From assembly GCF_024223415.1 (NCBI RefSeq), contig NZ_CP100500.1: a stretch of DNA of 64,000 bases. One strand, given 5' to 3'. A program made the position numbers and the translations under genes. Each line of letters opens with the position of its first letter. The first letter of the stretch is position 1. This DNA comes from Escherichia coli. GTDB lineage: Bacteria > Pseudomonadota > Gammaproteobacteria > Enterobacterales > Enterobacteriaceae. Positions 46,122 through 61,277 of this stretch are shown here, in pieces. The notes below the pieces were generated by a model that was not told the origin of the DNA, did not search any database, and saw nothing but the letters and a program-made list of their open reading frames with translations.

Positions 46122-46147
46122 AATTAACTACACCATTAACTACACCG
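46122..46147. repeat. attL core: 26-bp direct repeat AATTAACTACACCATTAACTACACCG
   Basis: Identical to 61252-61277; internally two tandem ATTAACTACACC 12-mers. About 50 bp beyond each copy are imperfectly similar. Confidence 0.8.
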
Positions 46148-46987
46148 TTCGGCGCACTGTATGAAACAACGTGGAACAAATAGGCACAAGAAATATAAAG
46201 GCGGGTAATTTTAAGGGGGCGTTGCTGTCGATATGGGGATCCACATAACGGGGCTACCTGGCTTTTTTTCCGGTTAAATGTCAATCAGGCTGGTGGGCTT
46301 TACCTGTTCGGTAGGTGTTATGATTATCGTAATACCTTTCCCCCAATGGGGTAAAAGCATCAACCGTAACGAAAGTCGTTATGGTTGCCACCGATACTCC
46401 AAATTTGGGTATCACGAGTAAGCCCCAAAATCTGGGTGTTACTCTTACTACCCAAACTACGGGTAGTTTCCGTAGTTTCATGGTCGAGTTGCAGATCTGC
46501 AACTCCCCCATCAACCACAGGCGAATTTCCGCCTTCGGTCATTCCTTAATCATCTGCGTAATCATAATGATTATTCAGCCAGCTCAATTTTGAGCTTTGC
46601 TTTAAGTTCAGCGAGTTACCGCGCCGACTTCCTCAAATTGAGGTTTCCGAAAATATCAGTGGGTTAGCGATTAAGCAGATGGATAATTAACCTGCGAAAA
46701 TTTCGCAGGTTACATCAGCGACGTAATTCTCGCTGTTCCTGCCCGGAGGTGTCGACGAATTTCGTCGGAACCTAAGCCTGCCGGGAAGTCCGTACGTTAA
46801 ACGTACGGAGTTAATTCGACATCACACACTACGTTGTCAATTTGCAAAGGAGGGGCGGAAATCACCATACCTGCCACCCTGTCATACAGAAAGGGATTAC
46901 GATAATCGTAACAGGATACAACGCCGCCTGTAATCGTAACCAATTGATTTTTATGATGACGCAAATCTGCGTTATCAGTCCTCAAAG
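46148..46987. other. 840-bp non-coding arm of the island, rich in hairpins and short repeats
   Basis: No convincing ORF. Contains palindromes CCAAATTTGG, GTTGCAGATCTGCAAC, AACCTGCGAAAATTTCGCAGGTT, CGACGAATTTCGTCG, CCGTACGTTAAACGTACGG and TTACGATAATCGTAA, plus three ATCGTAA motifs. Confidence 0.4.
46163..46189 (+). repeat. Phased heptamer array 1 (GAAACAA, GGAACAA, GGCACAA at exact 10-bp spacing)
   Basis: Read directly; lies just inside attL. Confidence 0.7.
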
Positions 46988-47278
46988 TTACCGCCGCAAC
47001 CGTTCCGGCTTCTTCCACTGATAAGTGTTTTTCGCGCTCTCCTGATACATCGCCACGCGTCGACGGTATGCCAGCAACTCTAGTACTCTGATTCGTATGT
47101 CGCGCATATCCACGCCGTTAAGCTCAATACCGTCACGGCGCATCACCTCCGCCACAACACGCACATAATTTTCGGCGGTCACGCTGTCCGGCTGCGTGGC
47201 CTGTTCGTCATGCTGCTGGCTGATTCCGGTAACGCGGCGGATTAATCCCAGTAGTTCGGCTTCGCTCATTCTCGTCAT
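46988..47278 (-). CDS. Hypothetical protein (96 aa), last gene of the packaging operon
   Basis: ORF whose start overlaps the terL stop; no recognisable motif. Confidence 0.6.
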   Translation of the reverse strand: MTRMSEAELLGLIRRVTGISQQHDEQATQPDSVTAENYVRVVAEVMRRDGIELNGVDMRDIRIRVLELLAYRRRVAMYQESAKNTYQWKKPERLRR

Positions 47279-48936
47279 ACCCCATCAAACGCCGCAAGCC
47301 GCTCTTTGTGGCTGTCGCTCATATCGAATGCAAATTCCTCATGCTCTGCCTGGAATGTGCCAAACGCCATCAGCGCCGCAACGCTCGGGTCTATCTTGTT
47401 GGATGATTTTTTCTTGTTCGGCTTGATATTGGCGTTCGCGTCACTCTGCATCACAACATTACTCATTGACCAGGCCAGCACCGGATCACCACGATGCACA
47501 ATCACCTTCCGGTTAACAAAAACTTCGAACGATTTCGCCGCCGGACTGAAACGAAGGTATGTTTGCGGGAACGGCTCCACCTCAAATCCTGCGCCCTGTA
47601 GCTGCGTCATCAGGTGCGTGGCGTTCCATGTATCGAAGCCCACCAGCCGGATATTAAAATTTTCCGCGTCCTTCATGATGTCATCCCTGATACGGTCGTA
47701 ATCAATACAGTCGCCTGGCGTTGTGCGTATCCAGCCCGATTTTGCCCACTGGCGATAGATGGCGCGGTTTTTATTGGCGGGATTCTGTAGCTGCTGCTCC
47801 GGCAGATAATGACGGGAAACCAGCATGATGGTTTTACCAACCGGAAAGGCATAACACACGCTTGAAATATCATTTGTTGATGATAAATCCAGCCCCGCAT
47901 AGCACTCCTGCCCGTGTAAATCTTCCTCCGTGAACGTTCCGGCACACTCAGCCCATGCACCGTTACCCATCCACGGCGTAGCCCCCTGACACCAGATATT
48001 AAAGCGCTTTGTCATCATCTCCACCCACTGCGACGGAATACCCCGCGCTTTCTGGATGGTTGAGGCAAGTTTTTCACGATCGACGGAAACATCGATATTG
48101 GGATTCGCCTTTATCCACATCGCCGGATCGTCAACCTCGCTTTCATCATCCAGCTCGTAAATCATCACGAACATGGATTCATTAACCTCTTCACCATCCA
48201 GTATCTGACAGCAATAATCATAGTGCTGCTTACAGGCAGAAATAACGTTGCTTCCCGATGTGGTAATGGCGAATAACAGCCCGTCAGGACGCGCACCCAT
48301 CCCAAGTTCAAGCGCGGAATATACGCCGTTATCGGGGTGTAAATGGTATTCATCCACAATGGCAAGACTCGGGTTTGTCCCCTCAATGGTCGCCGCCTTT
48401 GCCGCCAGTGGCTTTAACAGGCTGTTGGTTTTCGGGTGTATCACCTTGTGCGCCTGAATATTTACCCGCTTTCGTAACGGTCGGGATAAAAGGCACATCT
48501 GACGCGCATCATCAAACACGATCCGCGCCTGATCACGACTCACGGCGGCGGTGTAAATATCCTGCTGCCCGTTTTCCATAACCAGAAACCAGTTAGCCAG
48601 GATAGCGGCGACCGTGGATTTGGCATTTTTTCGCGGTACTTCAATGAATGCGCTGGTGTATTTGCGCCGTCCGGTGGACTTAACCTTAAAGCCCAGGATG
48701 CACGCAAAGGCGAACTGCTGCCACGGCTCCAGTTCAATGGGGCTACCGCGCATTGCACCTTTTACGTGCGGGCACACCCTGGAAAAGGCAATAAACCGCT
48801 CCACGACCTCCGGATCGAACGTGTAAAGGGGGTTTTCAAGGTCAGAAAAATACCGTTTAACAGCCTGTTTCAGTCGTTTACAGGCCGTAATTTTGCCGTT
48901 TTTTACGCCTTCTGCGTACTCATGCCAGGCGGTCAA
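47275..48936 (-). CDS. Terminase large subunit
   Basis: 553-aa ORF with ATPase N-terminus and nuclease C-terminus typical of Terminase_1 family TerL; overlaps terS. Confidence 0.9.
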   Translation of the reverse strand: MTAWHEYAEGVKNGKITACKRLKQAVKRYFSDLENPLYTFDPEVVERFIAFSRVCPHVKGAMRGSPIELEPWQQFAFACILGFKVKSTGRRKYTSAFIEVPRKNAKSTVAAILANWFLVMENGQQDIYTAAVSRDQARIVFDDARQMCLLSRPLRKRVNIQAHKVIHPKTNSLLKPLAAKAATIEGTNPSLAIVDEYHLHPDNGVYSALELGMGARPDGLLFAITTSGSNVISACKQHYDYCCQILDGEEVNESMFVMIYELDDESEVDDPAMWIKANPNIDVSVDREKLASTIQKARGIPSQWVEMMTKRFNIWCQGATPWMGNGAWAECAGTFTEEDLHGQECYAGLDLSSTNDISSVCYAFPVGKTIMLVSRHYLPEQQLQNPANKNRAIYRQWAKSGWIRTTPGDCIDYDRIRDDIMKDAENFNIRLVGFDTWNATHLMTQLQGAGFEVEPFPQTYLRFSPAAKSFEVFVNRKVIVHRGDPVLAWSMSNVVMQSDANANIKPNKKKSSNKIDPSVAALMAFGTFQAEHEEFAFDMSDSHKERLAAFDGV

Positions 48937-59908: not shown

Positions 59909-59955
59909 TTGTTCGTGGTTGTTTCACGTTGTTGCGTATTGTTGCACGTTGTATC
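59909..59955 (-). repeat. Phased heptamer array 3 (five copies at exact 10-bp spacing, opposite orientation)
   Basis: Plus strand reads TTGTTCG, TTGTTTC, TTGTTGC, TTGTTGC, TTGTATC, the reverse complements of CGAACAA, GAAACAA, GCAACAA, GCAACAA, GATACAA; lies between the int stop and alpA. Confidence 0.7.
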
Positions 59956-60000
59956 TGTGCACTTATCCAGTATGCGCATACTGAAAAAACACGAAAAAAA

Positions 60001-61251
60001 TTATTTTCTTCTGGCTACTGGTAGCGTGGTTACGTTTTCATGTGCTCCCGCCAGTATCTCCAACCGCTCCACCCACATATCCAGCGCATTGCGTTTCGCA
60101 TCCAGATAACGGGAATGATTATAAACTCGCTGCATTCCTGGCATCTGGTGGCCTGTAAGCTGCTCCACGACATGCGGATCAACGCCTAAATCGTTCAGCA
60201 TGGTTGTAAAGGTGCGCCGGATGTCATGCAGTGACCAGTGAGGGTGTTTAAGCCTCCTGTGCACTAATCTGCCGTACTGCGACACGCTGGTTTCCTGTTT
60301 CACTTCCCCCAGCAATAAGTCCGTGTGCCTGTTCTGCTCCACCAGCTGCGTGACGAACGGCAGTATCGCTTCCGGTATGGGCCGGAATATGGCTACCTTC
60401 GTTTTGCTGTGCTCCTTCGGAACGGTCCAGAGCATTTCGGTAAAATCCCACTCGCCGATCTCCGATAACCTCAGTTCTACTGTCCTGCATCCGAAGACAA
60501 TCAGGAGGCGGATTAGTGCGACGTAGTAAGGGGAAAATATTTTTTTGTCCAGTGCCTGCAATAATTCGCCAAGTTCTTTGTTACTTAAGACACGCTGACT
60601 TATATCCGGTTTTTTCCCAACGTCAGCCACACTCATATCATCAAGAACGTTGCTGATTGCATAGCGCCGCTTCCGGCAGAACTTAAGCGCCTGTTTGCAT
60701 GTCTGTAGCAGGAACCCGGCGGAAACAGGGGCTTGCTTTGCCACCCGATCAAAACAGGCCAGCCAGTGCCGTAGCTCGCATTTATCCAGCGGCATAGGGC
60801 CAATGTGCTGTATTACGTGATTATTTAGCCGCTTTTTCAGTGGGTCATAATCCACACGGTTTTCCTTTGCGTACGACTCAAGCCAGTAGGTGAGCGCATC
60901 GCCAACCGTTACAGGCTTTAACGCTTCCTGTACGGTGTAATTCATCTCATGACGTGGATTTTTCCCCTCAGCCAGCCATGCGCGACACTGGGCGGCTTTT
61001 TCCCTGGCTGATTTCAGGCTCAGATCAGGATAATTTCCCAGCTTAATGCGTTCCGGTGGTGCGCCCCTTCCCGTTCCGGCCCTGTAAGTGAAATACCAGG
61101 TTAAAAGGCCGCTGGTTGAATGCCTGACGGTCAGGTTTCCACCGTCATTAAGAAAGGCTGTTTTTTGGGCGGGTGTGCCGTTGATTTTCCTTAGCTGTGT
61201 ATCACTCAGTTTGTTAAGTGCTCTGCGCATAATTTTGATTCCGGTCATCAC
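60001..61251 (-). CDS. int: Tyrosine site-specific integrase
   Basis: 416-aa ORF with N-terminal arm-binding-like domain and C-terminal catalytic domain (..HDIRRTFTT..). First codon is GTG at 61251 abutting attR; ATG at 61248. Confidence 0.9.
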   Translation of the reverse strand: MMTGIKIMRRALNKLSDTQLRKINGTPAQKTAFLNDGGNLTVRHSTSGLLTWYFTYRAGTGRGAPPERIKLGNYPDLSLKSAREKAAQCRAWLAEGKNPRHEMNYTVQEALKPVTVGDALTYWLESYAKENRVDYDPLKKRLNNHVIQHIGPMPLDKCELRHWLACFDRVAKQAPVSAGFLLQTCKQALKFCRKRRYAISNVLDDMSVADVGKKPDISQRVLSNKELGELLQALDKKIFSPYYVALIRLLIVFGCRTVELRLSEIGEWDFTEMLWTVPKEHSKTKVAIFRPIPEAILPFVTQLVEQNRHTDLLLGEVKQETSVSQYGRLVHRRLKHPHWSLHDIRRTFTTMLNDLGVDPHVVEQLTGHQMPGMQRVYNHSRYLDAKRNALDMWVERLEILAGAHENVTTLPVARRK

Positions 61252-61277
61252 AATTAACTACACCATTAACTACACCG
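61252..61277. repeat. attR core: second copy of the 26-bp direct repeat
   Basis: AATTAACTACACCATTAACTACACCG, identical to 46122-46147, immediately 5' of the int start. Confidence 0.8.

Follow-up and report, generated by a model that had tools for sequence, protein, structure and literature searches.

A mosaic relative of the capsid-forming phage satellite EcCIEDL933 between phoQ and roxA of Escherichia coli

The ends of an island between phoQ and roxA

The window analysed here is a stretch of 64,000 nucleotides of Escherichia coli DNA (assembly GCF_024223415.1, contig NZ_CP100500.1), in which phoQ (44581-46041, 99.2% identical to K-12 W3110) and roxA (61470-62600, 98.2%) are the left and right neighbours of an inserted element. 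An earlier note, made from the letters of the sequence, had described this element as a satellite of 15.2 kb resembling a capsid-forming phage-inducible chromosomal island (cf-PICI), occupying positions 46122 to 61277 and carrying, from its right end, an integrase, AlpA, a divergent ribbon-helix-helix (RHH) regulator, small early genes, a RepA-like ATPase, a single-stranded DNA-binding protein (SSB) and an HK97-type head and packaging module. We assigned protein families by PHROG and NCBIfam searches, together with the PGAP names in the related element of GF60 (96.6% identical). Each of the listed gene classes is present in the order given, and the insertion does lie between phoQ and roxA, both of which are 98-99% identical to their K-12 counterparts.

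The earlier note had proposed a comparison with a naive strain, and K-12 is indeed without the insert. The phoQ-roxA region of K-12 W3110 aligns to the window up to position 46046 and picks up again at 61402, the position (603 of the query) from which empty-site genomes align; measured against this empty site, the insert occupies about 46050-61411, or 15,362 bp core to core. The true junctions are two copies of the core AAATATGTCC on the plus strand, the attL core at 46040-46049, which overlaps the phoQ stop codon, and the attR core at 61402-61411. K-12 has a single copy of the core, AAATATGCCC, which also overlaps the phoQ stop codon, and the consensus of the integration site is AAATATG(C/T)CC. 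The AAATATGTCC core borders five elements in all at phoQ-roxA, the others being three further elements and EcCIEDL933 of E. coli O157:H7 EDL933, the prototype of the cf-PICIs, which has been characterised by experiment (Alqurainy et al., bioRxiv 10.1101/2022.09.08.507074; structure, 10.1101/2025.02.11.637232).

The ends had previously been drawn at a perfect 26-bp direct repeat, AATTAACTACACCATTAACTACACCG. This repeat does occur in exactly two copies in the window (46122-46147 and 61252-61277), with a similarity around it that runs on to 75 nt at 79%, but it is not the junction: the two copies sit 72 bp (left) and 124 bp (right) inside the cores, and the element had been cut short by these distances. 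A hypothetical empty site joined at the 26-bp repeat was matched at a coverage of at least 80% by none of the 5,426 complete E. coli genomes to which all genome counts given here refer, and K-12-type genomes covered only 74% of it. It was this failure that exposed the wrong boundaries, and the alignment to K-12 then gave the true cores.

Each copy of the 26-bp repeat is a tandem pair of the 12-mer ATTAACTACACC and belongs to a longer attachment arm. The left arm (46050-46200, plus strand) contains the two ATTAACTACACC units (46123-46146) followed by ACAACGTGGAACAA (46166-46179) and is kept in elements at three chromosomal sites; the right arm (61252-61401, plus strand) contains two ATTAACTACACC units, two ACAA..GAACAA motifs (61296-61319) and presumably also the promoter of int. 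The outer 72 and 124 bp accompany close relatives of the island inserted inside tqsA (GF60, NZ_CP172185.1) and at allC/allE (TUM1886, NZ_CP128970.1), which are bounded by other short duplications, TGCTGTTAT and GGGATAT, respectively. The 26-bp repeat is therefore internal to both att arms and not the crossover site, the simplest reading being that it consists of arm-type sites of the integrase. From the outer core boundaries, the attP of the excised element is predicted to read ...TTGATAAA-ATATGTCC-TTTTATCACC....

The integrase itself is a tyrosine recombinase of 409 aa counted from MRRALNKL (60001-61230, minus strand; phrog_1, E 2e-72), 94.9% identical to that of EcCIEDL933 and with an alternative upstream ATG at 61248; the corrected ends give it 150 bp of upstream DNA of its own. 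We also observed that integrases 90-94% identical to one another place near-identical cf-PICIs at three chromosomal sites with different cores (AAATATGTCC, TGCTGTTAT and GGGATAT), and that the differences between the integrases of the window and TUM1886 concentrate at residues 130-151.

A full head and packaging module without tail or lysis genes

The left part of the island is a head and packaging module on the minus strand, which runs from 53622 down to 47275 in the order capsid, protease, portal, head connectors, hnh, terS and terL. It begins with an HK97-fold major capsid protein of 385 aa (52465-53622; phrog_10, E 9e-88) that has the cleavage motif STGVPAD at residue 93 and is 97.8% identical to the major capsid protein of EcCIEDL933, with eight substitutions and an identical STGVPAD motif. 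Next come an HK97-family prohead protease (190 aa, 51853-52425; phrog_80, E 2e-67; 97.4% to EcCIEDL933) and the portal (405 aa, 50634-51851; phrog_12, E 2e-118; 95.0%). The two connectors are the head-closure protein Hc1 (112 aa, 50299-50637; phrog_25, E 2e-29), 54% identical to its EcCIEDL933 homologue and 100% to that of GF60, and the head-tail adaptor Ad1 (98 aa, 50006-50302; phrog_40, E 2e-33), for which the figures are 68% and 100%. They are followed by an HNH endonuclease (146 aa, 49566-50006; phrog_144, E 6e-43; 78% to EcCIEDL933) and by a small protein (49400-49582; phrog_3173, E 8e-26 on the C-terminal 57 aa of the open reading frame (ORF)) that is a homologue of EcCIEDL933 gene 1792, mutation of which severely reduces transfer of the prototype (bioRxiv 10.1101/2022.09.08.507074). 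The terminase small subunit is of the P27 family and is 118 aa long by homology (TerS, 48920-49276; phrog_83, E 2e-38; PGAP name in GF60; 82% to EcCIEDL933), and the large subunit has 553 aa (TerL, 47275-48936; phrog_9, E 1e-181; 92.9%). Downstream of terL, also on the minus strand, lies a conserved 96-aa protein with no assigned function (46988-47278; phrog_1561, E 5e-55; 77% to its EcCIEDL933 homologue).

Between the gene 1792 homologue and terS is a GC-rich non-coding block (49351-49389, minus strand) that is nearly invariant in five elements. We place a candidate cos site here because this non-coding block hardly varies even in a Serratia cf-PICI. Its position fits the order HNH-cos-TerS of HK97-type phages.

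All packaging ORFs are full length, with lengths equal to those of EcCIEDL933, and no core gene contains a frameshift. In agreement with the earlier note, the profile searches gave no match to tail, baseplate, tape-measure, holin or endolysin families between the att cores, and the remaining ORFs of the island are all below 160 aa. Nor does the island contain CI/Cro-type immunity or phage replication genes. It shares the HK97-fold capsid, the protease-dependent maturation and the HNH-TerS-TerL genes with HK97-like cos siphophages such as HK97 and the helper HK106, but is 15 kb and not about 40 kb in size. P4-like satellites have an alpha primase-helicase, the genes psu, delta and sid for capsid size and transactivation, and no capsid genes. 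The island has capsid, portal and terminase, and no match to the Psu, Sid or Delta families was found among its proteins.

It had been suggested that capsid and terminase proteins clustering with those of ordinary temperate phages would speak against a satellite. No such grouping was found: identity to proteins of full-size phages (37 kb or more) does not exceed 40% for the capsid and 36% for TerL, and the matches of 58-82% are to records of 10-17 kb (vB_KppS-Ant, Pmp7 and Pmp8), to a 3.8-kb Salmonella phage fragment and to one 106-kb Klebsiella record. This last record (PQ569648.1, 'Klebsiella phage P12620-1') is poorly annotated; its segment 90600-106503 resembles a circularly permuted cf-PICI, the terminal ~16 kb containing TerL, an integrase-sized gene, a primase-sized gene, capsid, protease and portal, and the record is probably a chimeric assembly.

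The prototype occupies the same site

A comparison with catalogued cf-PICIs had also been called for, and the prototype proved to share both the site and the gene order of the island. EcCIEDL933 was located in EDL933 (NZ_CP008957.1) between roxA and phoQ, through its head module and then directly. It has the same attB (AAATATGTCC between phoQ and roxA), the same orientation and the same gene order as the island, and a nearly equal size (15,461 bp core to core), and the DNA of the packaging modules is 88.6% identical. Besides the diverged head-closure, adaptor, HNH and TerS proteins and a different RHH allele and operator sequence, the two elements differ in the following. The replication initiator of the island is a RepA-family helicase associated with TCCCCACT iterons, whereas that of EcCIEDL933 is a DUF927 primase-helicase; a gene for a 157-aa protein lies upstream of the capsid operon in the island but not in EcCIEDL933; and the segments 46390-46960 and 59107-59242 of the window cannot be aligned to the prototype.

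The elements of GF60 and TUM1886 (3940-19510 and 2950-17745 of the stretches that we extracted) are closer still, with 96.6-98% nucleotide identity over most of the island. Their head-closure, adaptor, portal and protease proteins are identical to those of the window and they share its RepA helicase and iterons; GF60 also has the 157-aa gene. They differ in their chromosomal sites and cores, in their RHH alleles and in the genes downstream of alpA, and their integrases are 90-94% identical. PICIs of about 11 kb are found at phoQ-roxA itself in O157:H7 strain 2159 and in NCTC9112 (7941-19160 and 3175-14040 of the extracted stretches). These have the same core and att arms as the island and share its int, alpA and RepA helicase, but of head and packaging proteins they encode only TerS, a decoration protein of the head and another major capsid protein, and lack portal, protease and TerL; they represent an intermediate type of satellite. 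Classical Gram-negative PICIs of the EcCICFT073 type (PMC6092414) and these 11-kb elements share with the island the integrase family, AlpA, Icd-like and DUF4222 proteins, the RepA helicase, SSB and PerC, and have att arms and core and AlpA-dependent induction in common with it. The classical PICIs are without portal, protease, connectors, HNH and TerL and use helper-made capsids.

The island belongs to a widespread group. The integrase of the island is joined to roxA in 543 of the 5,426 genomes, so that about 10% have a related island at this site, and the head-module query (connectors, portal, protease and capsid) is covered to at least 80% in 529.

An integrated, apparently intact cf-PICI

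Capsid-forming PICIs are defined by PICI-type int, alpA and rep genes, a particular order of packaging genes, the absence of tail genes and a size of about 15 kb (bioRxiv 10.1101/2022.09.08.507074). Further marks of the class are packaging proteins with only remote kinship to those of full-size phages and a specific attB that prophages do not use. The island has int, alpA and rep homologues, the packaging order, no tail or lysis genes, a length of 15,362 bp and packaging proteins distant from those of phages, and its attB is that of EcCIEDL933. We therefore consider, with a probability of about 90%, that a cf-PICI of the EcCIEDL933 type is present here in integrated and apparently intact form, having been inserted by its own tyrosine integrase at the core overlapping the phoQ stop codon. 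The classification proposed in the earlier note is thus borne out by gene content, order, size, the missing tail and lysis genes and a close kinship to EcCIEDL933; as to whether the site and gene order had been described before, which that note could not say, they had, the island being a mosaic member of an already characterised family at the prototype's own site.

Several points weigh against this assignment. The helper phage, the inducibility and the capsid size of this copy are attributed to it by analogy with its relatives, and there is no helper prophage within the window. The replication module differs from that of the prototype, so that its functional compatibility with the rest of the element is assumed. 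The arm sites, AlpA site, cos and operators are candidates that follow from position and conservation. Lastly, a codon-position test of the RHH gene against the 267-aa ORF antisense to it gave no separation, as the two frames share their third positions.

The alternative that survives best, which we nevertheless consider unlikely, is that the island is a cf-PICI by descent that has lost its mobility, owing to an incompatible replication module or incompatible adaptors, or for lack of a helper. In its favour are the mosaic composition, with a rep that matches EcCIEDL933 over 122 aa only and identities of 68% for the adaptor and 54% for the closure protein, and the finding that the prophages resident in EDL933 do not induce EcCIEDL933 (bioRxiv 10.1101/2022.09.08.507074). 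However, the same rep, iterons and adaptor genes are found at 97-100% identity in GF60 and TUM1886, and the recurrence of this combination at other att sites implies that it was recently mobile; the absence of frameshifts from the core genes also argues against a loss of mobility. Less probable is the reading of the region as the decayed ('cryptic') remains of an HK97-like prophage, from which the modules for tail, lysis and lysogeny have disappeared. The EDL933 counterpart was originally annotated as such, under the name CP-933C, and the head and packaging genes do come from phage families, have an integrase beside them as in a prophage and bear generic phage names in RefSeq. Random decay, however, does not give the same head-module layout in 529 genomes and in Serratia; the packaging ORFs are full length and equal in length to those of EcCIEDL933; no full-size phage has close homologues, and the near-identical prototype is a mobile satellite by experiment (bioRxiv 10.1101/2022.09.08.507074). 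The least credible proposal, that the att sites proper are the 26-bp repeats and the roughly 200 bp outside them a remnant of an earlier phoQ-roxA insertion, can point to the perfection of the repeat over 26 bp and to its abutting the integrase start, but it leaves the integrase without upstream DNA, for which the outer ends supply 150 bp, predicts an excision scar seen in none of the 5,426 genomes, and conflicts with the outer segments having travelled to tqsA and allC/allE, each with a different short duplication.

For an EcCIEDL933-type cf-PICI, a life cycle can be proposed by analogy with the experiments on EcCIEDL933 and EcCICFT073. Induction by a helper, dependence on alpA, the making of own capsids and the theft of tails have been shown for EcCIEDL933 and a few other members of the family (bioRxiv 10.1101/2022.09.08.507074), AlpA being an auto-activator that is turned on by the helper (PMC6092414), and the capsid of EcCIEDL933 has T=4 symmetry, with adaptor/connector proteins, a known variable region, that fix tail specificity (10.1101/2025.02.11.637232). 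Here, a helper phage would turn on alpA, after which excision by AlpA and Int would take place at the outer cores, with the ATTAACTACACC tandem pairs probably serving as Int arm sites. The RepA-type helicase would replicate the circle from the adjacent TCCCCACT iterons, while the capsid operon (capsid, protease and portal) would build small HK97-fold T=4 heads. HNH, TerS and TerL would cut and package the island DNA, probably at a cos site just upstream of terS, and the adaptor and head-closure proteins would finally dock the tail of a helper siphovirus. Given the low identity of these two proteins to their counterparts in EcCIEDL933 (68% and 54%), this variant probably docks a helper tail other than that of HK106, which is used by the prototype.

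The comparison makes exact att cores and an arm architecture available for this integrase family. It also reveals a natural swapping of modules, in which replication and tail-docking genes have been exchanged and capsid, portal and terminase have remained fixed, a pattern that fits the published idea that adaptor/connector proteins set the choice of tail. Two regulatory leads, an RHH repressor and a putative AlpA motif, are taken up below.

RHH and AlpA as candidate regulators

The RHH (Arc-like) regulator, a protein of 64 aa (58916-59110, plus strand; phrog_228, E 8e-6), is encoded antiparallel to the rest of the island and has its own terminator at 59145-59164. Together with the 157-aa ORF at 53938-54411, it is one of two opposite-strand genes in the island. 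The divergent arrangement with an operator that the earlier note had recognised is indeed present: two operator-like palindromes, GGTGTACAC(C), lie at 58872 and 58907, 35 bp apart (58872-58916), within an inverted repeat that is perfect over 12 bp. The strongest sigma-70 match of the island, a leftward promoter on the minus strand with TTGACA at 58922, overlaps with them. EcCIEDL933 likewise has a two-site operator layout, with a different sequence, and RHH alleles occur at the equivalent position in GF60, TUM1886, NCTC9112, O157:H7 strain 2159 and the Serratia island. From this arrangement, the candidate operator sequence is GGTGTACACC, and RHH is probably a repressor that acts on the early leftward promoter by way of both GGTGTACAC(C) sites.

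The strand of the RHH gene is preferred on evidence other than codon positions. The antisense ORF in the window is 267 aa long, and its family match (Icd-like) is confined to its last ~65 aa. The RHH of the island is 77% identical to an ORF of EcCIEDL933 that is not annotated (3716-3907 on the minus strand of the extracted stretch), in place of which RefSeq has a hypothetical protein of 247 aa read from the opposite strand; the EDL933 gene seems to have been assigned to the wrong strand.

Gram-negative PICIs have been described as unidirectionally transcribed, with a global repressor that is 'unclear' (Fillol-Salom et al. 2018, PMC6092414). The island departs from this description, with its opposite-strand genes and a candidate repressor, and since EcCIEDL933 carries the same RHH ORF, it is the published description that is called into question, rather than the membership of the island. 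Nothing relevant on RHH regulators of Gram-negative PICIs came up in a search of the literature, which is not proof of novelty.

AlpA (62 aa, 59438-59626, minus strand; phrog_2790, E 1e-17), the excisionase/activator, is 93.5% identical to that of EcCIEDL933. The window has six copies of a 14-nt motif, ACAACGTGRAACAA, where 1.07 are expected, and all of them are in the island: in both att arms (46166, and 61296 and 61306), upstream of alpA (59919 and 59939) and upstream of the capsid operon (53840). The copies upstream of alpA take the form of two ACAACGTG(A/C)AACAA motifs in the int-alpA intergenic region (59919-59952, minus strand), and that upstream of the capsid operon is ACAACCTGGAACAA (53840-53853, plus strand), with an equivalent copy in EcCIEDL933, GF60 and TUM1886. 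Copies of ACAACGTGRAACAA are kept at equivalent places in four relatives, namely these three and an 11-kb PICI. It is a reasonable guess that ACAACGTGRAACAA is the AlpA binding site, and if this is true, it would link excision, auto-activation and capsid expression.

It is possible, but on present evidence rather doubtful, that RHH is the master repressor that Gram-negative PICIs and cf-PICIs have seemed to lack, coupled with ACAACGTGRAACAA as the AlpA site. The idea draws on the operators lying over the early promoter and on a position that is conserved, with variable alleles, in EcCIEDL933, classical PICIs and the Serratia cf-PICI.

Replication, early and accessory genes

The RepA-family helicase or replication initiator has 468 aa (56208-57614, minus strand; phrog_2850, E 3e-186, with further matches to helicase-primase PHROGs) and is named 'helicase RepA family protein' by PGAP in GF60; its resemblance to the DUF927 protein of EcCIEDL933 is limited to the N-terminal 122 aa. 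Immediately 3' of rep lies an array of direct and inverted copies of the iteron core TCCCCACT (56005-56210), a putative replication origin, as had been noticed before: seven of the eight copies in the window, where 1.1 are expected, fall within 56017-56192.

The other genes of the middle and early regions are on the minus strand. Upstream of rep, an early operon (57611-58782) encodes a DUF4222 (RgdR-like) protein, three small proteins with no assigned function and an Icd-like protein (about 58582-58782). On the other side of rep are two small proteins without an assigned function (55453-56036; phrog_27268 and phrog_1231), SSB (55033-55443; phrog_44, E 4e-41; 98% to EcCIEDL933), a PerC-family transcriptional regulator (54741-55022; phrog_994 and transcriptional-activator PHROGs; PGAP name in GF60) and a small protein of phrog_1957, again without an assigned function (54447-54734). 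A manA RNA suggested by an Rfam scan of the island was rejected as sub-threshold (E 0.058; 21.6 bits against a gathering score of 55.2).

The second opposite-strand gene is an accessory gene (plus strand) that is divergent from the capsid operon and is flanked by a bidirectional terminator at 54415-54440. Its 157-aa product, which has no assigned function, gave no match in Pfam, PHROG, PADLOC or NCBIfam. It has homologues at 52-62% identity in other Enterobacterales, among them a 61% identical protein of Serratia marcescens encoded at the same position in a cf-PICI. An AlphaFold (AF2) model of the protein is confident (pLDDT 90), and all full-length matches found by Foldseek are uncharacterised proteins with a length of about 140-160 aa; some of these carry a fused RHH, AbrB or WYL domain, and one bears the label of a SocA-like Panacea antitoxin. 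The accessory gene is possibly of an orphan antitoxin-like or anti-defence kind.

Chromosomal context

The sequence outside the island is unremarkable E. coli chromosome, extending from modD by way of minCDE and icd to phoPQ. Its first 24 kb match several complete genomes at 100%, and the backbone of NCTC9112 is identical to that of the window. We noted one difference in an otherwise identical gene: umuC (17084-18352, minus strand) is frameshifted relative to that of NCTC9112, leaving the C-terminal 304 aa alone in frame, which reflects either a pseudogene or a sequencing error.

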